Part shown: one piece after another, positions 3,990 to 63,200 of the stretch
Numbering within the stretch: the stretch's first letter is position 1
Layout of the letters: every line of letters starts with the position of its first letter
NCBI RefSeq assembly: GCF_036365525.1
Contig: NC_090395.1
Location: forward strand, 45,390,136-45,454,135
Reading direction: 5' to 3'
Origin: Heterodontus francisci
Lineage: Eukaryota
Length of the DNA: 64,000 bases
The notes under the pieces: model-generated
Seen by the model: only the letters and a program-made list of their open reading frames with translations
Database searches by the model: none
What the model was told of the DNA's origin: nothing
Made by a program: the position numbers and the translations under genes

Positions 3990-4008
3990 TTCTCTCTCTC
4001 TCTCTCTC
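3990..4008. repeat. (CT)n microsatellite
   Basis: About 9 CT units seen directly. Confidence 0.8.
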
Positions 4009-4359
4009 GGAGAAGCACAAACCCGTTATTGTGCAATCTGATTGGGAAAAAGTGCAGGGCACACATGAAGTGCAATAAGTGAATATGCAATTTAAGTTTG
4101 GGACAATAATGTAATCATAGTGCCTTTCCACCCCACCACCCCCCCACCCCCCCAACTTAAAGATGATCTCAAATATTACCTATTTACTTTTCACCTTCTG
4201 GTTGGGCTCTATAATTCAGAATCAGATTTAGTTATGTCCTTTGTTAAGACCGACTGCTAACTGCACCCTACCACTGTGTAGGGGTATGGTTATGCAGTAG
4301 TTGCATTACTGGACTATTCCAGAGGCCTGAACTAATAATCCAGAGAATGCGAGTTCAAT

Positions 4360-4560
4360 GAGGACTGTGGAAGATTATGCTAGGAGCAGCACAAGGCATA
4401 CCTAAAATGAAGTGCCAACCTGGTGAAGCTACAACACAGGACTACATGCATGCTAACAGCAGAAGCAGCATGCTACAGACAAAATTGAACAATCCCTCAA
4501 CCAACAGAAACGGTCAAAGTTTTGCAGTCCTGCCACATCCAGTAGTGAATGGTGCAGGAC
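4360..4560 (+). mobile_element. Internal LINE fragment, probably the same family as 5480-6935, preceded by a tRNA-SINE head fragment at about 4285-4358
   Basis: YLKMKCQPGEATTQDYMHA-like tether region. The upstream ctggacta..ccagaggcc...gagttcaa resembles the SINE head at 60044. Confidence 0.5.
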
Positions 4561-4590
4561 ATGCAGGACGTGGTTTTAAGAACAGAACCA

Positions 4591-4730
4591 GAATCTGAAG
4601 AAGAGTCACATCCAGCTCAAAACAGTAACTCTGTTTCTCTCTCCACAGATGCGTCCAGACCTTCTGAGTATTTCCAGCACTTTCGGTTTTATTTCAGATT
4701 TCCAGCATCTGCAGTATTTTACTTTTATTA
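4591..4730 (+). mobile_element. Penelope-like terminal repeat fragment with a degenerate hammerhead motif
   Basis: ctgaaga-a-gagtc..agctc-aaaac followed by aactctgtttctctctccacagatgc...gagtatttccagcac...ttcagatttccagcatc, shared with the copies at 19039, 27546 and 60100. Confidence 0.7.
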
Positions 4731-4885
4731 TATTTGTGCTCCACTGCTGCAGAGCGTGGTGAGCCAAGGATATGGAAGGTATCGCTGGTCTCCCAGGATT
4801 CAACCCTTAATTTGAAGGGTACCGGCAAATAATGAGGCATGATAAACCACGACTGTTGCCAAGGAAGTAGGAATTCACATACATG

Positions 4886-7245
4886 GTGCTGAAGTTTTGT
4901 GTTGGGGGCAGGAAACAGAAGTCTGGACTGTTTCTGGGTCCTGAACCCATGCTGTGGGGTGGGGTGGGGGGGGTGGGGGGAACAGAATTAAGCCACAATT
5001 TTCATGGGGGCAACCCCTTAATTGGTGTGGAGACAGGTTTGGCAGCCAATTAGCATCTGCGGAAGCAGGAACGGAGGCAGGACAGATGAAGTGCGTGCCC
5101 GATTTAAACTCTGCACAGCAGCCATTACTGTGGCTGCTGTGTGAGTGATGAAGATTGCTGAGAAGATTGAAGAGAAGATTGCTGTTGAGCCTTAGCCTGG
5201 ATTGTTGTCTCCCATGGTGTCGCATGGGAGCCGGAATCATGGCACCCGGGGCAGGGCAGACCCTCGGTTCCCCGACAATTACCTTTACGTGATGCTGGAG
5301 GCCATGAGGGAGAGGAGGGAGATAATCTTCCTAGAGGGTGGCAGGAGGAGGCCACCCATTGAGACAAAGCATACCTCAGTTAAGATAGCAGCCACTGTCA
5401 GTGGCAGAATGTCATTAAACAATCCTGGATTCAATGCAAGAAAAGATTCAATGACCTAATATACTCTGGCAAGGTGAGTGCGTCCCTAGCCAAACTGCTC
5501 CAGTACAGCTACAACACTGGCATCTACCCAGCAATGTGGAATATTGCTCAGGTATGTTCAGTACACAAAAAGCAGGACAAGTCCAACCCAGCCAATTACA
5601 GCCCCATCAGTCTACTCTCAATCATCAGCAAAGTGATGGAAGGTGTTGTTGCCAGTGCTATCAAGACCCACTTGCTTAGCAATAACCTGCTCACTGACAC
5701 TCAGTTTGGGTTCTGCCAGGGCCACTCAGCTCCTGACCTCATTACAGACTTGGTACAAACATGGACAAAAGAGCAGAACTGAAGAGGTGAGGTGAGACTG
5801 ACTGCCCTTGACATCAAGGCAGCATTTGACCGAGCATGGCATCAAGGTGCCCTCGCAAAACTGAGGTCAATGGGAATCAGAAGGAAAACTCTCCACTGGT
5901 TGGAGTCATACCAAGCGCAAAGGAAGATGGTTGTGGTTGTTGGAGGTCAATCATCTGAGTTCCAGGACATCACTGCAGGGGTTCCTCAGGGTATTGTCCT
6001 AGGCCCAACCATCTTCAGCTGCTTCATCAATGACCGTCCTTTAATCATAAGGCCAGAAGTGGGGATGTTCGCTGATGATTGCACAATGTTCAGCACCATT
6101 TGTGACTCCTCACATACTGAAGCAGTCCGTTCAGAAATGCAGCAAGACCTGGACAATATCCAGGCTTGGGCTGATAAGTAGCAAGTAACATTTGCGCCAC
6201 ACAAGTGCTAGGCAATGACCATCTCCAACAAGAGAGAATCAAACCATCTCCCTTGACATTCAATGGCATTACAATTGCTGAATCCCCCACTATCAACATC
6301 CTGGGGGTTACCATTGACCAGAAAATGAACTGGAGTAGCCATATAAATACCATGGCTACAAGAGAATGTCAGAGGCTAGGAATCCTGCGGCGAGTAACTC
6401 ACTTCCTGACTCCCTAAAGCCTGCCCGCCATCTACAAGGCACAAGTCAGGAGTGTGATGCAATACTCTCCACTTGCCTGGATGACATCATCCAGGACAAA
6501 GCAGCCCGCTTGATTGGCACCCCATCCACAAACATTCACTCCCTCCACCACTGATGCACAGTGGCAGCAGTGTGTACCATCTACAAGAGGCACTGCAGCA
6601 ACGCACCAAGGCTCCTGAGACAGCACCTTCCAAACCCACGGCCTCTACCGCCTAGAAGGACAAGGGCAACAGATGCACTACTACCTGCAAGTTCCCCTCC
6701 AAGCCACACATCATCCTGACTTGGAACTATATCGCCGTTTCTTCACTGTCGCTGGGTCAAAATCCTGGAACTCCCTTCCTAACAGCACTGTAGATGTACC
6801 TACCCCACATGGACTGCAGCAGTTCAAGAAGGTAGCTCACCACCACCTTCACAAGGGCAATTAGGGATGGGCAATAAAGGCTGGTCTAGCCTGTGATGCC
6901 CACATTCCAGGAATGAATAAAAAATTTTAAAAAAACATCCAAGCCTTCAGACAGGCCTCTGGGTACTCACCCTCCAGCAGACGCACCACCTGAGGCCCCT
7001 CACAGGGCATGCTGCTCCTGAACACGGGGTGGGGGGGCGGGGGTATGTGCCCAGGCAGCTTACTCACCCCTCAGAATGGCTCAGAGCCACAGTGCTGCTG
7101 AGGACCTGCCACCACTGAAGCATGCAGCTTCTAATGAATAAAGGCAGATGCCATTGGCCACAAGGAAGAGCAGTGCCCTATCTTGCTCTCCTTTGTCCTT
7201 GCAGGAGAAAGGGGCACACAATGCCTGGGAAGGGGCACAAGTTTT
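4886..7245 (+). pseudogene. PIF/Harbinger transposon remnant with a spliced Myb/SANT-like gene (exon 1 about 5214-5473, exon 2 from 7205), interrupted by a LINE
   Basis: PRFPDNYLYVMLEAMRERREIIF..GRRRPPIETK...IAATVS, frameshift, then WIQCKKRFNDLIYSGK|gtgagt. Acceptor ctttgtccttgcag|EKGAHNAWEGAQ. TIR-like gtgctgaagtttt at 4886. Confidence 0.75.
5480..6935 (+). mobile_element. CR1/L2-group LINE (second family, tail aagggcaattagggatgggcaataaa), 5'-truncated
   Basis: ANYSPISLLSIISKVME, ALDIKAAFDRAWH, AGVPQGIVLGP, MFADDCT. Ends in gaatgaataaaaaa. Confidence 0.9.
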
Positions 7246-7249
7246 AAAC

Positions 7250-8700
7250 TCTCTTGGTGATCCTCAGACATGTTTGAATAATTGTATGAGGATCAGAAAA
7301 TGCTGCTCAAGCTTGTGGTCTACAACTGCACTTTCCTCTCAACATGTGTTTGGTGAGATTATTGCCAGTTTTACAGAAACCCTTGAACCTCCAGATAATT
7401 AAGGTTGTCACTTGAACATGTTTCACCATCAACCCTGTCTTCTTAATTATATTGCTTTGTCAAATGCAGATATTCTTTACTGTCTTGCTTTGTGTATCAA
7501 GATTTGTGAAAATTCTGCAAAGATGGGTTTAGATAAAATAAGGAGCTAGACACACAAAATTACTTCTGTATTCTATGTATGTCCCCAATTTTCTCCTCTC
7601 CTGAAGGTGTTGACTCCCTGCTACAGTATTGTTCTACTGGCACCAATTGCCCTCCAGTTCCTTGCTGAAGTGGCCTTTATTCCCAAGTGAGCATTGGCGG
7701 TGAGAGTCAGCAGGCTATTTGACTCTAGGGCCATTATAGCTGGACCCATTTCTCTCCTCACCAAACATCCAAACATATGCAAGGGTCAGTGGACAGTGAT
7801 TCCTCACCCCAACACTGATGCATTGAGACACTGCCATTAAATAACTCAGCAGAAACTGCACATTTATTTTCTATACCTTTGCTTATGTACTTCAACACTT
7901 TGGAATAGCTTATTGTTTACAACATCGATTTATTTATTGATATACCATGTTTGCTACTTTTAATACCAGTATTATATTCAATTTCTTTCAATATTAAATT
8001 CCATTTCAATTGTCCCATTGCAGTCTCAAAGCTCTTGCAATTTTATCCATTTTCTGTGACCATCTTGTTCCTATAAAATAATTTAGGCACTATACTTACA
8101 ATACCGTTGAGAAAATCATTACTAAATGATTTAAAAGCAGGAGTATCTGGAGTAAGAGATTTTGCTGACCAATTAAGATAAGCTTTAATTACAATGATCT
8201 GTTTCCTATTATCTAAAACAAAATTCATATATTTCTTCCTTCAACATATCTTTTAAAATATGTTCATTTTCTTTTAAGTTACTTTTCACTTATTTATTGA
8301 GGGATTGATATTAACCTTTCATTTCTGTGGGGCATAATTTATTCTACTGATTCTCCAATATATCCTTAATAGCAGTTCACCTTTGTTTGACATTTCCCCC
8401 TTTATTTTTTTTTCTCTTCCCATTTCAAGTCTTAAAGGTTATATTAATTTCAATACCTGTTGCTACCAGCTGCAGCATAATATCAAATCTGCTAACATTA
8501 TATTTGCTTAAGTGTTCCACAAACTATAAATGGGCGACCATTACTAAATACCAGTTCAGGTGTGGCTTGCCTTTTGTTTTGATTTTAACATGTTCCATTT
8601 AAAAGTATCGCTGATCTTTCAAGAAACCCTTTCCTCATGTGACTTTCACATTCGGGCATTAAAATCTCAAAAAATATGATTCACTTTTACACTAATATTG
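7250..8700 (-). mobile_element. Ancient decayed CR1-like remnant
   Basis: The minus strand retains weak MEFNIE-like and KYISKGIENK-like motifs typical of the CR1 ORF2 C-terminal half. Confidence 0.35.
7585..7860 (-). mobile_element. Old SINE, AmnSINE2-like
   Basis: ccaattttctcctctcctgaaggtgttgactc...aagtggcc...gcaggctatttgac...ctcctcaccaaacatcc...ggtcagtggacagtgat...aactcagcaga matches my recollection of the AmnSINE2 consensus in reverse. Confidence 0.55.
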
Positions 8701-8944
8701 TCTTATTTCATTTAAATTATGAAATGATCTTTCAAAATCCAAGATCAAGCTAATTCTCCTTTTAACTTTTTTCCTCCTGAATGTTTTTTCCTCTTTCTCT
8801 TCTGAGATTGCTGAATTTTGATGGGATATGGCTCCACAACTTCTAGCTATCCTCCAGTATCTAATCAAAGTGAATCCAAGCAGTAAAGCCTAGATTTTGT
8901 GATTGGGGAGTCAAGCCTAACAGAAGGACTGATAGTGCAATATT

Positions 8945-11900
8945 CAATGAGACAAAGATTCCATAATTAGGGAGACAGGCGCTTCTGTAACCATCATTGT
9001 GAGTTTCACATGATGTGTTGTCTCCATGGTGCCAGGATAAAGGACATCAAGGAAAGGGTGCAGAATCTTCTGCAGGGGGGAAGGGATTGAGTCAGAAGTT
9101 GTGATGCACGTCAATAGCAACAACATAGAAAGCACAGGTGTTAGGCTCCTGCAGTCAGACTTTCCGGACCGAGAGAGCAAGTTAAAAAGTAGAACCTCAA
9201 AGGTAGTAATCTCTGGAATATTTTCAATGTTACGTGCTAGCGAGAGTAGAAATAGGAAGGCGGGATCAATGCGTGGCTTGAGGCATGGTGCAGGAGGGAG
9301 GGCTTTAGATTCTTGGGAATTGGAACCAGTTCTGGGGCAGCAGGCACCTATTCAAAAGGGACAGGCTGAACCTCAACAGGACTGGGATACGCATCCTTGT
9401 GGGGAAGTTCACTCGTGGTTGGGGAGGGTTTAAACTAAAATGGCAGGGGGATGGGCACCAGCATATAGATGTAGAAAAGAGAAATAAGGTGCATAAAGGG
9501 GCAAGAGTGTTGGATAGTACTAGAGAAGGGAGTAGTACGATATTTTTTAGAAGCAGACTAAGAAGAATATCGAGTAATGCAAAGACAGGTTTAGAATGCA
9601 TGTGTGTAAACACACAAAGTATGATGAATAAGGCTGGTGAGCTACAAGCACAAATATCCATGTGGGAATATAATGTAGTGGCAGTAATGTAAATGTGGCA
9701 TAAAAATGGTGAGGACTGGGTGCTTAATATTCAACAATACAGTGTTCAGAACAGATAGGGAAGGGAAAAAGGAAGGTGGGATGGCAGAGCTGATTAGGGA
9801 AGACATTATATTGTTAGAAATAGAAGATGTCCTTAAGGGGCAGGGACAGAATGCATTTGGTTAGAGTAGAGAAGCAAAAAAGATATGATCACATTACTAG
9901 GTTATTCTATACGCCTCCGAAGCGTGAAAGAGAGATAGGGGAACAAATCTGCAGGGAAATCACAGAGATGTGCAAGAAGTATGGAGTGGTGATTTTGGGG
10001 GATTTTAATTATCCAAATATCGATTGGCATAATGTTAGACTAAAGGGTAAGGAGGGAGAAGAATTTCTGAAATGCGTTCAGAACAACTTCCTTAACCAGT
10101 ATGTTCTCAGTTCAACTAGGAAGAAGGCATTGCTGGATCTGGTGCTGGGTATGGAGGTGGGCCAAATGGACTGAGTGTCTGTGGGGGGACATTTGAGTAA
10201 AAGTGATCTTTGTAACATAAGGTTTAGTTTAGTAATGGAGAAGAGCAAGGAACAATCTAAAGTAGAACTTCGAAATTGGAAGAGGGATGAGAGGGATCTG
10301 GCCAAGGTAAAATGGAACCAAAGACTGACAGGAAAAACTGCAACAGAACAATGGGTGATCTTTAAGGAGGAGATGTTTCAGGTATAGGCTAAGTACATTA
10401 CAACAAGGAAGAAAGATAGGAGAACCAAAACCAGGGCTCGTTGGATGATGAGGGAGATAGTGAATATGATGAAACAAAAAAAGTGTATGATGCATGCCAG
10501 GTGAATTCTTCAAGCAAAAAACAGGCCAAATACAATAATTTGAGAGGGGAACTGAAGAGGAAAATAAGACTGGCAAAGAGAGAATAAGAGAATAGAATGG
10601 CAGTTAACATAAAAACCAAAAATCTTCTACTAGCATGTAAATAGTGAGTAGTAAGAGGCAGGGTGAGGCCTAAGAGGGCCAAAGAAGATAATATATGCTT
10701 AGAGGTGCAGGACAAGGCTAGAATACTTAATTAGTACTTTGTATTGGTGTTTATGAAGGAAAAGGATGCTGACAAAATATTGGTAAAAGGGGAGATGGCA
10801 GAGGTAATGTATTGGGTGAAAATTGATAGGCAAGATGTACTAGAAAGGCTGGCTATGCTTAGAGTGGATTAGTCACTGGTCTGGATGGCTTGGATCTCAG
10901 GTTGCTCAGGGAAGTGGGGGTGCAGACAGCAGAAGGGCTTGCCATAATCTTCCACATATCCCTAGATATGAGGGAGGTGCCACAGGATTGGAGAGTGGCA
11001 AATGTGACAGTCTTGTTCACGAAAGAGTGTAAGGACATTCCTAGTAATTCCAGGCCAGTCAATGTAACATCAATGGTGGGTAAGGTTTTAGAAACAATAA
11101 TCAAGGAAAGAATTAACAGGCACTTGGAGAGGTTTGAGTTAATTAAGGAGAGCCGGCACAGATTGGTAAAAGGCAGATCACGTTTGACTAATCTAACTGA
11201 ACATTTTGATGAAGCAACAGAGAATGCTGATGAAAAGAAAGCAATAGATATTGTCTATATGGATTTTAAATTTTAAGAAAGTGGTTGACAAAGACCCACA
11301 TAAAGGCTGGTTAACAAAATTGAGGCTTATGAAATAGGAGGGGCAATGTCAGCTTGGATAAAAAAAATTGGCTCAAGGACTGAAAACAGCGAGTCATGGT
11401 AAATGGTTGCTTTTCAGACTGGAAGATGGTAGACAGTGGTGTTCCCCAAGATTCAGTGTGAGAACCTCTACTTTTTTGATATATATAAATGATTTGGATA
11501 TTGGAATACAGATTAAAATTTCAAAATTTACTGATGATACCAAATTTGGTGGTGTGGCAAACCCTGAGGATGATACCAATCGACTGCAAACATAGATAGG
11601 TTAACAGGATTGGCAGACATGTGGCATATGAAATGTATTACAGCGAAGTGTGAGGTGATACATTTTGGCAGAAGGAACAGGGAGAGGCAATTTAGGCTTA
11701 ATGGCACAGTTCTAAACAGTGTGCAGGGACAGAGGAATCTCGGGGTTCATGTGCGTAGATCTTTGAAACTGGCAGGACATACTGAGAAAGTAATGAGCAA
11801 AGCATATGGGATCTTGGGCTTCATAAATAGAGGTAATGAGTACAAAAGCATTTATGCTGAACCTTTATAAAGCTCTGGTTAGGCCACAGCTAGAGTATTG

Positions 11901-18984: not shown

Positions 18985-19140
18985 TTACATTTCCTGCCTT
19001 ACACTTGCTTAAAACCTATTACATTTCTAACTTTTCCCAGTTCTGATGAAAGGTCATCAACCTGAAGCTTTAACTCTATTTCTCTCTCCACAGATACTGC
19101 CTGATGTGCTAAGTATTTCCACCATTTTTCTTTTTTCATT
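18985..19140 (+). mobile_element. Penelope-like terminal repeat fragment with a degenerate hammerhead motif (19039-19075)
   Basis: agtt-ctgatga-a-aggtc-atc-aacct-gaag-cttt-aact followed by the ctctctccacagat...gtatttcc block. Confidence 0.72.
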
Positions 19141-27545: not shown

Positions 27546-27650
27546 GGTTCCGATGAAAGGTCACAGACCTGAAACGTCAACTCTACTTACTTCTCTCTCC
27601 ACAGATGCTGCCTGACCTGCTGAGTATTTCCAGCACTTTTATTTTTATTT
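27546..27650 (+). mobile_element. Penelope-like terminal repeat fragment with a hammerhead motif (27546-27582)
   Basis: ggtt-ccgatga-a-aggtc-aca-gacct-gaaa-cgtc-aact followed by the conserved ctctctccacagatgctgcctgacctgctgagtatttccagca block. Confidence 0.75.
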
Positions 27651-27814
27651 AATATTATTTATTATTGAAGATCAATGGATTGGCTGCTTTGTGGGCAAAC
27701 TTCAAATTGCTCGTTAAATCCCTGGATGCACCCATTAATCTTGCCTTTTCCTCCAGTGGAAAAGTGATTCAATTTAACTCATCCACTCCAAATTTGCTAA
27801 TGACACAGACAGAG

Positions 27815-53470: not shown

Positions 53471-55296
53471 AGGATTAGTATAAATGGGTGGTTGATGGAA
53501 GGACAGCATTACCCCTGAAATAATCAAGAGTGCCAAGCCTGCTATACTCTCAGCACTACATGAACTGCTATGCCTGTGCTGGGACGAGGGAGCAGTACCC
53601 CAGGACATGCGCGATGCCAACATCATCACCCTCTATAAAAACAAAGGTGACCGCGGTGACTGCAACAACTACCGTGGAATCTCCCTGCTCAGCATAGTGG
53701 GGAAAGTCTTTGCTCGAGTCGCTCTGAACAGGCTCCAGAAGCTGGCCGAGCGCGTCTACCCTGAGGCACAGTGTGGCTTTCGTGCAGAGAGATCGACTAT
53801 TGACATGCTGTTCTCCCTTCGTCAGATACAGGAGAAATGCCGTGAACAACAGATGCCCCTCTACATTGCTTTCATTGATCTCACCAAAGCCTTTGACCTC
53901 GTCAGCAGACGTGGTCTCTTCAGACTACTAGAAAAGATCGGATGTCCACCAAAGCTACTAAGTATCATCACCTCATTCCATGACAATATGAAAGGCACAA
54001 TTCAACATGGTGGCTCCTCATCAGAGCCCTTTCCTATCCTGAGTGGTGTGAAACAGGGCTGTGTTCTCGCACCCACACTTTTTGGGATTTTCTTCTCCCT
54101 GCTGCTTTCACATGCGTTCAAATCCTCTGAAGAAGGAATTTTCCTCCACACAAGATCAGGGGGCAGGTTGTTCAACCTTGCCCGTCTAAGAGCGAAGTCC
54201 AAAGTACGGAAAGTCCTCATCAGAGAACTCCTCTTTGCTGACGATGCTGCTTTAACATCTCACACTGAAGAATGCCTGCAGAGTCTCATCGACAGGTTTG
54301 CGTCTGCCTGCAATGAATTTGGCCTAACCATCAGCCTCAAGAAAACGAACATCATGGGGCAGGATGTCAGAAATGCTCCATCCATCAATATTGGCGACCA
54401 CGCTCTGGAAGTGGTTCAAGAGTTCACCTACCTAGGCTCAACTATCACCAGTAACCTGTCTCTAGATGCAGAAATCAACAAGCGCATGGGTAAGGCTTCC
54501 ACTGCTATGTTCAGACTGGCCAAGAGAGTGTGGGAAAATGGCGCACTGACACGGAACACAAAAGTCCGAGTGTATCAGGCCTGTGTCCTCAGTACCTTGC
54601 TCTACGGCAGCGAGGCCTGGACAACGTATGCCAGCCAAGAGCGACGTCTCAATTCATTCCATCTTCGCTGCCTTCGGAGAATACTTGGCATCAGGTGGCA
54701 GGACTATATCTCCAACACAGAAGTCCTTGAAGCGGCCAACATCCCCAGCTTATACACACTACTGAGTCAGCGGCGCTTGAGATGGCTTGGCCATGTGAGC
54801 CACATGGAAGATGGCAGGATCCCCAAAGACACATTGTACAGCGAGCTCGCCACTGGTATCAGACCCACCGGCCGTCCATGTCTCCATTATAAAGACGTCT
54901 GCAAACGCGACATGAAATCGTGTGACATTGATCACAAGTCGTGGGAGTCAGTTGCCAGCATTCGCCAGAGCTGGCGGGCAGCCATAAAGACAGGGCTAAA
55001 TTGTGGCGAGTCGAAGAGACTTAGTAGTTGGCAGGAAAAAAGACAGAGGCGCAAGGGGAGAGCCAACTGTGCAACAGCCCCAACAAACAAATTTCTCTGC
55101 AGCACCTGTGGAAGAGCCTGTCACTCTAGAATTGGCCTTTATAGCCACTCCAGGCGCTGCTTCACAAACCACTGACCACCTCCAGGCGCGTATCCATTGT
55201 CTCTCGAGATAAGGAGGCCCAAAAGAAGATGGTCGGCACAGACTCGGTGGGCCGAAGGGCCTGTTTCAGTGCTGTATCTCTAAACTAAAACTAAAC
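53471..55296 (+). mobile_element. 5'-truncated HE1 SINE tail (53471-53498 plus 55228-55296) split by an RTE insertion
   Basis: aggattagtataaatgggtggttgatgg ... gatggtcggcacagactcggtgggccgaagggcctgtttcagtgctgtatctctaaactaaaac rejoins into the HE1 3' end. Confidence 0.88.
53499..55227 (+). mobile_element. Young RTE-clade LINE, 5'-truncated, with an open RT frame 53499-55175
   Basis: CNNYRGISLLSIVGKVFA, PEAQCGFR, FIDLTKAFD, GVKQGCVLAPTLF, LLFADDAAL, LLYGSEAW, RLRWLGHV and a C-terminal CSTCGRACHSRIGLYSH. No stops. Short 3' UTR ending aaaagaa. gatgg TSD. Confidence 0.95.
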
Positions 55297-57779: not shown

Positions 57780-60099
57780 CTGAAAATGTGAAAGAAGTGA
57801 ATTAGTGTTAAAATGTCTGGTTACGAACTAAAAGGTAATCACAGCGAATCTGAATTACATTTAAAGTCATTAGTTCTGTTATTGATGATAATGATATGAT
57901 ACAGTTTAGAACTTGTAATCCTCTTCTCACTGAATTCATAATATCAGCCATCTGGCTATGGAGAAGCACTGAAAGAAAGCCAGGCTTTCGCACAGAGAAG
58001 AATGGAAATGCAAGGGGAAAATCATTCCCAGACCATCTTTACATAGTTCTACCAATGGTGTCTGAAGCTGCATTAGTAAAACACTAAGAACAAGTGCCCG
58101 TGGGCTAGCTCAGACACTAGTTCTATGTAGTGCGGAGACTCCCAGCTGGGAGAAAGAAGGAGTGCATCTGTATCTAGTTAAATGTCTTGTGCCTAGCTTG
58201 CATCCACAACAACACTAGATGTTACAATTCAATGTGTAACACTTTGTTACAAATGCAAAGCAATGTTAAAGAAAAGTTAAAATGCTGATCACTGACGCTG
58301 AAATTTATAATTGCCTTCTGATTGAATTCAACATTTTATAAACAGCTATAATTACCTGAAGCTGTCTAAGAGCTTTAAAGGGGTAAGCCAGGTTAGCAGC
58401 TATATATCACTACTGCACTCTAGACTACCATATGAGTACACAGGAGAGCTTTAAGATAAGAGAATTATTCTTGAGATTGTGTTTACTTGATAATCCCTGA
58501 ATGATTGTGAGTACAATGTGGTAAAAATTCAAACAGATCAGGGGACTCCCAGGTTCAATTCCTATTGCTGAGTTTGCCTCTTTTAACTGTGGAAGCATTC
58601 GGAGCAGAACAATTGGTTTCAATTACTCTGATCTATAGACCATAGATCTAAGAATGTGCAGGTGGAGCATTTTATGGATAGTGTCCCGGACATCCAGGTG
58701 GGCCCCACTACCATCACATGGTCATCCTATCTCTCAAGGGTACCAGTGTCCACCTTACATTGGAATCCTCTGTAGGCTCTGGGCACAATGACTCTAATGT
58801 TTCAATTCCCTAACCCGATCCTACCTCACCATGTGCCAATGATCTGGTAAGGGGCAGGCAGCGGTTCAGTCCCCACAAGGCTAACAGGAACATTTGGGAG
58901 TTTGTGGAAAGCATTGCATTTCGGGACAACCATATCTGCAATAGGTGGCTGCAGCTTGAGCAACTCAGAGTTGCTGAGCTGGAATCAGAGCTGCAGACAT
59001 GTGGGGCATTAAGGATGGGGAGAGTTACCAGAAGGCAGTACACCCCTTAGGTTAAGTAGAACTTCAGAATTGGTCAATGATCAGGGACAGGAGGGTGTGT
59101 CTGCGTGTCAGGCAGGTATGGAGATCTAGCATGTAGTGATGGAGGAACCTTGGCCCTTGACTTTGACCAACAGGTATGAGGTAGTTGCTACATGTGTGGA
59201 TGAAAACAAGGATTGCAGGGTGGGTGGGCAAACTGACCATGGTGCAGGATGCCATGCAAGTGTGGGAAATGGACAGGAATGTAGTAGTGATAGGGAACAG
59301 TATAGTCAGTGGGATAGATACTGTTCTCTGCAGCTGTGACTGGGATTTCCAGTTGTGTTGCCTGCCTGGTGCAAGGGTTAAAGACATCTCATGGCTGGAG
59401 ATGAACTTGGAGTGGGAGAGTGGTAGGAACCAAAGATATAGGTAGAACTAGGAATGACATTCTACTGAGAGAGTTTGAGGAGTTAGGGGCCAAATTAAAA
59501 TGTAGAACCTCTAAGGCATTAATCTCTGGATTGTTACCTGAGCCATGCGGTAATTGGCATAGGGTCATGCAGATAAAGGAATTAAATGTATGGCTCAAAG
59601 AGTGGTGTGGGAAGAAGGGGATTTGATTCATGGAGCACTGGCACCAGTACAGGGAAAGAGGGAGCTGTTTCATTGGGATCAGCTAAGATGGGCACTGGGA
59701 TTAGTGTCCTGAAGAATCATATAACTAGGCCTGTGGATAGAGCTTTAAACGAAAAGGGGAGGGGGAGGGGATCAGGTGAAGGGGGATTTAGAAATCTAAA
59801 TCAAAAGTCAAAGCAATAGAGCAATTTCAGAAAAGACAAGCAGAGCAGAACAGGAAGGGACGGAGAACTTAATGGGAATAGTGCATCAGCAAATAAGGTC
59901 CATACAAAGAATAGTAGTAAAAAACAAAAACTAGAGGCTCTTTATCTGAATGTACAATGCAATCACAATAAGATAGATAATCTAGCAGCACAAATCGAGA
60001 TAAGTGGTTTAGATCTAATTGCCATTACAGAGACAACGTTACATTGTGGTAATGTCACTGGACTAATAATGCAAGAGGCCCAGGCTAATGTCCTGGGGA

Positions 60100-60268
60100 A
60101 TAAAAACAGGAAGTGCTGGAAATAATTAGCAGGTCTGGCAGCATATGTGGAAAGAGAAGCAGAGTTAACGTTTCAGGTCAGTGACCTTTCATCAGATCTG
60201 CTGAGTATTTTCAGCACTTTCTGTTTTTATTTCAGATTTCCAGCATCCACAGTATTTTGCATTTATTT
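60100..60268 (-). mobile_element. Penelope-like inverted terminal insertion with a 14-bp TSD
   Basis: Inverted arms at about 60100-60132 and 60198-60230. TSD taatgtcctgggga (60086-60099) / taatgccctgggga (60269-60282). Confidence 0.8.
60163..60199 (-). ncRNA. Minimal type I hammerhead ribozyme motif (Penelope-associated), putative
   Basis: The minus strand reads agau-CUGAUGA-A-agguc-acu-gaccu-GAAA-CG-UU-aacu. Both core boxes are intact, stem II is a perfect 5 bp, and stem III is a loopless palindromic ACGU. Confidence 0.65.
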
Positions 60269-63200
60269 TAATGCCCTGGGGATATGGGTTCAAATCCCAC
60301 CTTGGCAGCTGGTGGAATTTAAATTCAATGAATTAATTAAAAAAAAATCTGGATTTGAAAGCTAGTCTCAGTAATGTTGCCATGAAACTATGTTTGATTG
60401 TCATAAAATTCCATCTGGTTCATTCATGTCCTTTAAGGAAGGAAATCTTCCGTACTTACCTGGTCTGGCCTACATGTAATTCCAGACCCACAGCAATGTG
60501 ACTGACTCTTAACTGCACTCTGAAATGGCCTAGCGAGCCATTCAGTTCAAGGGCAATTAGGGATTGGCAACAAATGTTGGCCTTGCCAGCGATGCCCACA
60601 TCCCATGAAAAGAAAAGAAAACAAGGTGGTCAAAGTTGAGAAATAAATATTCCAGGGTACAGAACATTTCGAAAAGACAGACTGAATGGGAAAGGAGGAG
60701 GAGTAGCCCTCATAGTAAAGCATGACGTAAGGACAATAGTGAGAAATGATCTTGGCTCAGAAGATCAGGAAGTAGAATCAATATGGGTGGAGATTAGGAA
60801 TAAAAAGGGTCATAAAATGCTGCTGGGAGTAGTTTATAGCCTCCTATAGTATAGTAGTTGGACTAAACATGAAGCAAGAATAATTGGAGCTTGGAACAAA
60901 GGTAATGTATTAATTGTAGGGGACTTTAATCTTCATGTAGACTGGACAAATCAAATTGGCAAAGATAGTCTGGAAAATTAATTTGCAGAATACTTTCATG
61001 ACCGTTTCCTAGAACAATATGTTGTGGAACCAACTAGAGGGAAAGCTATTTTAGATTTTCTATTGTGCAATGAGGAAAGTTTACTTAGTAATCTCATTGT
61101 AAAAGATGCTCTGGGAAAAATTGTTCATAATACAATTGAATTCATATTAAGTTTGAAAGCAACATACCCCGATCCCAGACAAGAATTCTGAACTTATACA
61201 AAGCCAATTACATATGTATGAGGGGAGAGCTGGCCAAGGTTGATTGGGTAAATAGACTAAAAGATATGAAGGTAAATAAACAGTTGGAAACATTTAAAGA
61301 AACAATTCAAAAAGCTCAATAATAAAATCCATTAAAAAACAAAAACTCAGCAAGAAAGATCCATCTGCGGCTTACGAGGGAAGTTATGGACTGTATTAGA
61401 TTTAAAAAAGAGGCTTATAATGTTGTAAAAAATAGTCGAAAGCCTGAATATTGGGAATGTTTTAGACACCAGCAAAGTTGGTAAAAAGGGAAAACATAGA
61501 ATATGGGTGTAAATTAGCCAAGAATATAAAAACAGATTGTAAGAGCTTTTACAGGTATATTAAAAAGAGGAGACTAGCTAAAATAAACATTGGCCCCTTA
61601 GAGGCAGAGACAGGAGAAATTATCGTGGGGAATGAGGAAATGGCAGACATGTTGAACAAATTGTTTGTGTGTCTTCACAATAGAAGATACAAATTACATT
61701 ACAGAAATAGAGGGTAACCAAGGGCCTAATAAGAGTGAGGAACTCAAGGTCATTAATATCATCAGGGAAAAAGTATTGGAGGAAACTTAAGGGACTAAAA
61801 GCCAACAAATCCCCCTGATGACCTACCTCCTTGGGTTCCAAATGAGGTAGCTGCAGAGATAGTGGATGCACTGGTTATGATTTTGAAAATTTCGCTGGAT
61901 TCTAGAATGGTCCCAGTGGATTGGAAGTTAGCAAATGTAGCGCCATTATTTTAAGAAAGGAGGGACAGAGAAAACAGGGAACTACAGGCCAGTAAGCCTG
62001 ACATCAGGAAAATGCTGAAATCTAGTATTAAGGAAGTCTTAACAATGCACTTAGAAAATCGTAGTATGATTAGAACAAGTCAACATAGTTTACAGAAGGG
62101 AATGGTGTTTGACAAATTTTTTTAGAGTTTTTTAAGGATGCAACTAGTAGTGTAGATAAAGTGGAACCAGTAGATGTAGTATACGTGAATTTCCAAAATG
62201 CATCAATAAGGTGCCATACAAAAGGCTAATATGCAAGAAAAGGACTCATGGAGTTGAGGTTAATATATTAGCATGGATATAGGATTGGCTAATGGACAGG
62301 AAGCAGAGAGTACGGATAAACAGGTCATTTTCAAGTTGGCAGGTTGCAACTAATGGAGTGCCGCAAGGATCAGTGCTGGGGCCTCAGCTATTCACAATCT
62401 ATATTAATGACTTAGACAAAGACATTGAGCGTAATGTATCTAAGGTTGTTAATGATACAAAGCTAGGTGGGAATGTAAGCTGTAAGGAGGACACAAAAAG
62501 ATATAGACAGGTTAAGCGAATGGGCAACAAGGTGGCAGATGGAGTATGGAGTATAATGTGGAGAAGTGTGAGGTTATTCTCTTTGGTAGTAGAATATTTT
62601 CAAAAGGCGTGAAACTTTTAAACATTGATGTTCAGGTGTGCTCATACAAGGAACACAGAAAGTTAGCATGCAGGTACAACAAGCAATTCGGAAGGCAAAT
62701 GACATGTTGGCCTTCATTGCAAGAGGATTAGAGTCCAAGAATAAGGAAGTCTTGCTGCAATTGTACAGGGATTTTGTGAGACCACACCTGGAATACTGCG
62801 AGCAGTTTTGGTCTTCACATTTAAGGAAGGATATACTTGCATTGGAGTGAAGGTTTACTAGATTGCTTCCTGAGATGACAGGCTGAGCAAATTGGACCTA
62901 TAATCTCTGCAATTTAGAAGAATGAAAGTTGATCACATTGAAAGATACAAGATTCTGAAGGGGTTTGACAGGGTAGACACTGAGAGATTGCTTCCTCTGG
63001 CTGGGGAATCTAGAACATGGGGCACAGCCTCAGGATAAGGGGACAATCATTTAGATCTGAGATGAGGAGAAACTTCTTCGCTCAAAGGGTTGTGAATCTT
63101 TAGAATTTTCTACTCCAGAGGGGTTGTGGATGCTTCATCATTGAGTATAGCGAAGGCTGAGATAGAAAGGTTTTTGGTCTTTCAGGAAATCAAGGGATAT

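Follow-up and report, generated by a model that had tools for sequence, protein, structure and literature searches.

Genomic context

The window, which is the whole stretch of 64,000 nucleotides of Heterodontus francisci DNA that was analysed, carries on its minus strand a 936-bp exon of GRM4 (57779-56844) bounded by AG/GT and encoding the cysteine-rich and transmembrane domains. This exon scores 613 bits with mGluR4 against 580 with mGluR8 and 572 with mGluR7, and mGluR4 is also the best match of the first coding exon, which is found on that strand 840 kb further upstream. These two exons delimit more than 840 kb of the gene (C25:45.45-46.29 Mb), and a motif search found five exon-like stretches in between. 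The nearest upstream donor gives the intron that precedes the 936-bp exon a length of about 29.1 kb. As this donor is 29 kb away, the motif described below falls within an intron, in sense orientation, 2,384 nt ahead of the intron's 3' end, in agreement with the initial annotation, which had placed it in the GRM4 sense about 2.4 kb upstream of the 936-bp exon. A motif search of the window revealed no GRM4 exons 3' of the 936-bp one, and the three plus-strand copies of the same family are therefore only presumed to be intronic. A gene-level survey covered 464 kb, namely the window and 400 kb upstream of it, about half of GRM4.

Two observations concern other parts of the genome and of the window. 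Dense clusters holding dozens of PF01094 family-C receptor-like exons are present at C11:108.0-111.0 Mb and 115.7-116.0 Mb, and we take these to be probably vomeronasal type 2-like genes. In the window, positions 53496-55175 of the plus strand contain an uninterrupted LINE reverse transcriptase (RT) frame of 559 amino acids (PF00078, E 2e-33); this LINE is likely to be young, given the 93-97% identical pieces in locus L091.

The hammerhead motif

The minus strand from 60199 to 60163 reads, in successive segments, AGAT, CTGATGA, A, AGGTC, ACT, GACCT, GAAA, CG, TT and AACT, which is a minimal type I hammerhead motif. Both core boxes (CUGAUGA and GAAA) and the UH triplet GUU are in place in this GRM4-intron copy, with C3 at 60195 and the predicted cut between 60167 and 60166. 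Stem II has five base pairs (60187-60183/60179-60175, pairing probability 0.94-1.0) with one extra nucleotide (A) ahead of 10.1, and the palindromic ACGU at the 15-16 positions would permit a dimer. Stem I is four positions long and three of them pair, the exception being an A.A mismatch at 2.2/1.2 (A60197 against A60165). The two boxes, the perfect stem II, the GUU, the ACGU and the single stem I mismatch had all been reported in the initial annotation and are read directly from the minus strand. Two features depart from the minimal hammerheads (min-HHR) of Penelope-like elements (PLEs): the pair closing stem II is A10.1-U11.1 in place of G10.1-C11.1, and stem I falls short of 4-5 bp, this stem being intact in the family.

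The motif passes a hammerhead descriptor. The Rfam scan had no match at the gathering threshold and the hammerhead model was not among the 11 matches obtained at E<=10. Moreover, the bare core pattern was found three times in the 64-kb window against 2.28 expected, which is chance level. With Rfam silent and the bare core no more frequent than chance, the reality of the motif rests on the evidence from its family.

Structure of the insertion

The motif is contained in a 169-bp insertion (60100-60268) in which two portions of a single terminal repeat are arranged head to head. The direct arm (60099..60200, minus strand) is the 3' part of a Penelope-like pseudo-LTR (pLTR), with 89% identity to the pLTR of the ORF-bearing copy L075, and begins at the hammerhead's 5' edge, finishing at a short 3' end that has no tail. 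The inverted arm (60193..60268, plus strand) is joined to it head to head and comprises the final ~75 nt of that pLTR, among them a tail of ~35 nt. The 39-nt arms of the insertion are 87% complementary and differ at five sites. The resulting imperfect 39-bp inverted repeat (60099-60231) folds strongly on both strands (z of -6.4 for the minus and -9.0 for the plus strand), and in the pre-mRNA it is possible that it forms a double-stranded editing substrate.

The insertion is flanked by direct repeats of 14 nt on the plus strand (60086..60099 and 60269..60282), the right one with one mismatch, and it splits a host interspersed repeat (60045..60620, plus strand, approximate boundaries) that is presumably a SINE. 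A BLAST search of the 464 kb with the right flank gave 29 matches, one of them across the empty site: this other copy of the host repeat holds the 14-nt stretch only once, so the 14-nt repeats are a true target-site duplication (TSD). The host repeat in turn splits a decayed LINE endonuclease-domain fragment (59931..60972, plus strand), which we assume to be CR1-like. Its translation matches PF03372 in three pieces that follow the order of the profile (2-41, 63-106 and 136-159), each of them weakly (E 0.09, 0.16 and 0.02). An automatic TSD search on 37 short copies of the family returned lengths of 6-19 nt, of which values below about 10 may be due to chance. The arm junction of the focal copy, with its mismatched A, occurs six times in the genome, and for this reason the fragment was ruled out as an amplifying MITE or subfamily.

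The Penelope-like family

In the 6.0-Gb genome the pattern CTGANGAA-N13-GAAACGTTAAC, which has a CUGA core, finds 33,528 matches and its reversed control none, so that the full motif is not a product of chance. The same pattern with CCRA (CC(G/A)A core) has 48,173 matches, also with 0 in the reversed control, and among 100 of these matches listed 97 were CCGA and three CCAA. The exact version of the focal motif with a perfect stem I is present in 1,312 copies (reversed control 0). The most abundant subfamily, more numerous than the CUGA form, has a CCGAAGA core (U4C, A7) and a stem II closed by G10.1-C11.1. CpG decay of CCGA was rejected as the sole source of the CUGA cores, since CCAA would be its mirror product and is as rare as stated. 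The U4C change gives lower activity in vitro and yet is tolerated in a viroid (PMC3088659).

Upstream of the motif the longer copies have as much as 1.5 kb in common, and this sequence reaches into one ORF. In relatives L075 and L091 this single ORF, encoding an RT and, C-terminally, a GIY-YIG endonuclease, is placed upstream of the pLTR, and it is absent from the focal fragment. The stretch L091:6103-7521 is the open 3' part of the parent ORF, 472 aa long and 5'-truncated, and matches the RT (PF00078, E 4.6e-6) and GIY-YIG (PF01541, E 1.9e-3) profiles, in both cases below the curated cut-offs. The motif is thus the pseudo-LTR hammerhead of a Penelope-like element, and the earlier description of it as a minimal type I, Penelope-type hammerhead of dimeric architecture is supported by this RT and GIY-YIG parent. 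In addition, a Cys-x-Asn-x3-Cys-x2-Cys stretch was spotted by eye in the linker between the RT and the endonuclease of the L091 translation. This by-eye motif would suggest a Neptune type.

Copies of the family in GRM4

Four family copies are present in the window, and only that at 60099-60269 has its hammerhead on the minus strand, so the claim that it is the sole copy in the pre-mRNA sense holds within the window. The other three are on the plus strand, antisense to GRM4. The copy at 27547..27656 has a CCGAUGA core and a GUC triplet, and both its stem I and its stem II are intact; at 19002..19135 the GAAA box is broken, and at 4594..4729 stem II and the GAAA region are degraded. The focal copy is also the only sense copy of its intron, the next one being 41 kb away, beyond an exon and with a broken palindrome.

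In the 464 kb surveyed there are 31 pLTR pieces, 28 of which lie in the 406 kb of the gene that precede the 936-bp exon. These split evenly, with 14 in the sense and 14 in the antisense direction, and several are halves of a single insertion. Thirteen motifs pass the descriptor (six sense and seven antisense), and in two of the sense ones the helices are perfect and the core is CCGA (C25:45,709,254 and 45,771,439). They belong to two young head-to-head insertions in GRM4 introns, C25:45,709,119-45,709,845 and 45,771,341-45,772,315, which have 94-96% identity to L075 and carry a perfect-helix CCGA hammerhead on both strands. These two insertions are better candidates for activity than the focal copy. 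The density of core-intact copies is 13.6 per Mb, and an 840-kb gene is expected to hold a sense copy with a CUGA core with P about 0.90. The special significance that had been attached to the sense position in GRM4 is therefore not supported, given this density, the even distribution between strands and the better sense copies in the same gene; a sense hammerhead is what one expects of a large gene, and GRM4 is most likely unaffected.

Decay, selection and covariation

Ninety copies were sampled from the first 100 listed of the 33,951 matches to a 35-mer downstream of the ribozyme, a few entries being the two arms of one insertion. By a rough pattern, about 47 of them have the tail and 43 do not. 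Sixty-five reached the core, and after five were dropped for indels the 60 that remained in register were scored with subfamily-diagnostic columns excluded. Mismatches amount to 19/600 in the core, 16/480 in stem II and 17/600 downstream. The copies decay neutrally, and any selection must therefore have acted on the source elements. Among the 68 copies that reach C3 the boxes are kept in 49 and all helices in 17; an intact core is ordinary in the family.

Covariation was assessed at the helix pairs. A two-sided change was seen at one of nine, 10.1-11.1, a count that 54 of 500 shuffles also reached, and at none in stem I. In 143 gapless copies, a sample partly chosen by pattern, the 10.1-11.1 pair is A-U in 64, G-U in 55, G-C in 22 and A-C in two, with CGTT present in 113; among 42 distinct rows (of 49) the figures are 17 A-U, 17 G-U, seven G-C and one other. 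The covariation is weak and reflects the subfamilies. Compared with its subfamily majority, the focal copy differs at 1/33 ribozyme sites (a loop base) and at 4/48 downstream, which leans toward conservation of the focal hammerhead on too few sites for a test.

Predicted folding and activity

According to ViennaRNA, stem I of the focal copy forms with P<=0.001 in contexts of 43 to 401 nt, and the hammerhead-like fold is 8.2-12.0 kcal/mol above the minimum free energy. In its context the inverted repeat is predicted to pair with the 5' strand of the hammerhead and with C3-U4-G5. Four family copies with perfect stems gave stem I probabilities of 0.04-0.57 at 43 nt and of 0.001-0.27 at 190 nt, and among the five copies folded the focal one is predicted to form the weakest stem I. 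These values come from a program that ignores tertiary contacts and proteins and that is harsh on intact family members in longer context too. The predicted homodimer of the focal copy pairs through stem II and not through stem III.

The initial annotation had considered the monomer probably slow or inactive, and our predictions support probable inactivity. Stem III needs a second hammerhead and there is none in the 29-kb intron. Moreover, stem I is predicted to be unformed, with the 39-bp inverted repeat competing for the 5' strand and for C3-U4-G5. In the literature, a single min-HHR is described as giving no detectable cleavage and dimers or trimers low activity (PMC4209133). The PLE hammerhead of the anole was cut only with its protein, cleavage was dispensable for insertion, and the RNA-seq reported contained no reads ending at the cut site (PMC11167929). 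For Xenopus retrozymes one of nine dimers cleaved and eight did not, in a study whose survey took in one chondrichthyan genome (bioRxiv 10.64898/2026.07.22.740005).

Origin and likely fate of the GRM4 copy

We estimate at about 0.88 the probability that the motif is a Penelope-like pLTR hammerhead left behind as a 169-bp head-to-head fragment, and that it is an inert passenger of a pre-mRNA which stays uncut, the inactivity being argued from the predicted folds and from related ribozymes. The motif belongs with the Penelope min-HHR family despite its A10.1-U11.1 pair and its incomplete stem I. The insertion could have arisen as follows. The protein of the element would nick the target, and copying of the RNA would begin at two points, so that one cDNA includes the 35-nt tail and the other lacks it. 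The direct cDNA would extend as far as the ribozyme's 5' edge, and fold-back or microhomology would join the two cDNA pieces. A fold-back join is the likely source of the mismatched A in stem I.

A passenger could still be conditionally active. Low-level cutting, without a selected function, would take place once the protein of the element, or a family transcript paired through ACGU, completed the fold in trans. The core and the palindrome of the focal copy are intact, more than 80,000 core-bearing matches are potential partners and the anole ribozyme is protein-assisted (PMC11167929). Nevertheless we consider this improbable, as stem I is mismatched and predicted to be sequestered, the predicted homodimer does not use stem III, sense copies are not depleted in GRM4 and the anole reads described in the same report do not end at the cut site. 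Domestication as an intronic ribozyme tuning the splicing or RNA level of GRM4, in the manner of the amniote RECK and C10orf118 hammerheads, is more improbable again. Intronic hammerheads derived from repeats do provide a precedent (PMC6155905, PMC3088659), and the orientation, the intact core and the distance of 2.4 kb from the 3' splice site would suit such a role. However, a sense copy is expected in a gene of this size, better ones are found in the same gene, the architecture is minimal rather than canonical, and the motif lies in a third-tier nested insertion whose TSD is still recognisable. There are no signs of domestication of the GRM4 hammerhead.

That the letters match the hammerhead boxes by chance has next to no probability. 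The frequency of the bare core in the window, the silence of Rfam and the weak covariation of the family could be read in that way. A chance origin is refuted by copy numbers in the tens of thousands, against none in the reversed controls, and by the RT and GIY-YIG parent, in whose terminal repeat such motifs have been described (PMC4209133). The passenger fragment of a Penelope-like element thus accounts best for the locus.

Where the copies begin

The 5' ends of the copies bear on the state of the RNA that was copied. Counted from C3, 37 of the 90 sampled copies start at -8..+2 (25 of them at -4..-1), nine at -60..-9 and 19 at +3..+45, and the remaining 25 extend further upstream. There is no enrichment at the cut site (+29), with only two of the 90 copies starting at +27..+31, and so the DNA holds no record of cleavage in vivo. 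Across the genome, 101,862 matches extend to -2, 43,837 to -10 and 34,346 to -18. The step from -10 to -18 is 0.78, as a decay of 3% per base gives, and the step of 0.43 from -2 to -10 implies that about 45% of the copies stop there. Among 24 long copies scored (three more had no core), TATAA or TAAAA is found at -33 in 16, and YCAGTT directly precedes C3 in 18. Considering the known consensus and spacing of the TATA box and the initiator, this arrangement fits such a promoter with a start at the first base of stem I.

We propose tentatively, and at slightly less than even odds, that transcription starts at that base from a promoter with a TATA-like element at -33 and YCAGTT at -6..-1 from C3, and that reverse transcription, initiated downstream at about 100 or 135 nt, ends by running off the uncleaved 5' end. 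The strong-stop-like cDNAs, SINE-sized, would then insert and would make up about 45% of roughly 100,000 copies, the focal one included. If true, the genome itself records that the ribozyme was uncut on the RNA that was copied. Starts at the 5' edge of the ribozyme agree with in vitro work in which uncleaved RNA is the template, and the family offers a very large natural set of copies for asking what the Penelope hammerhead does.

The pile-up of starts could also be due to splicing, with the AG ahead of stem I serving as 3' splice site, as the intron of the D. virilis Penelope ends at helix I (PMC4209133; PMC2377424). Against this, the one candidate donor that was searched has 24 matches with spacers that are all different, nearly all of which retain the G before TT, and no population of spliced copies joining this donor to the AG was found. 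Run-off of an uncleaved transcript remains our proposal. TATA/Inr-like motifs in pLTRs have already been noted for rotifers (PMC3846280). The literature listings searched contained no report of the start pile-up or of a GRM4 hammerhead, and the supplements of PMC4209133 and bioRxiv 10.64898/2026.07.22.740005 may list related motifs.

Comparison with known systems

The amniote RECK and C10orf118 hammerheads resemble the focal copy in being type I motifs in introns. They are canonical and conserved across species, whereas the focal motif is of the minimal kind, has tens of thousands of counterparts in its genome and bears no mark of selection. Animal non-LTR retrozymes share with it the type I hammerhead, the origin from PLEs and the non-coding nature, but they are described as tandem repeats with at least two hammerheads (bioRxiv 10.64898/2026.07.22.740005) and the focal copy is a single inverted fragment. 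No tandem repeats were found at 57-64 kb; the absence of tandem units there and the distance of 41 kb to the next sense copy rule out a non-LTR retrozyme.

The metazoan PLE min-HHR, as described in PMC4209133, are alike in most respects. They are of type I with a short stem I and an extra nucleotide between 9 and 10.1, they have no loop 3 and a palindromic 15.2-16.2, and they occur mainly as single copies from truncated elements, in thousands per genome. The differences from the same description are that stem II has 5 bp here against 7-8 in the min-HHR of S. mansoni, that 10.1-11.1 is A-U in the focal copy against the conserved G-C, that the copy number is >80,000 against about 4,000-9,000 in coelacanth and Xenopus, and that the commonest subfamily here has the CCGA (U4C) core.

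Poseidon PAc of Anolis (PMC11167929) also has two 3' ends a tail apart and a hammerhead in the pLTR, and the lack of a pile-up at the cut site in the copies studied here is in line with its uncleaved template. The PAc ORF starts inside the ribozyme (PMC11167929), while here the fifth codon of the frame opened by the ATG of CUGAUGA is a stop, and the CCGAAGA subfamily does not have that ATG. Unlike the EN+ Neptune-type PLEs, the focal copy has no ORF. The family otherwise agrees with those elements as they are described in bioRxiv 10.1101/2021.04.23.441226 and PMC3846280, in having an RT followed by a C-terminal GIY-YIG, a candidate cysteine motif in the linker, a pLTR with TATA/Inr-like motifs, and insertions with an inverted 5'-truncated copy, a tail of 30-40 bp at one end, a palindromic head-to-head junction and a TSD.
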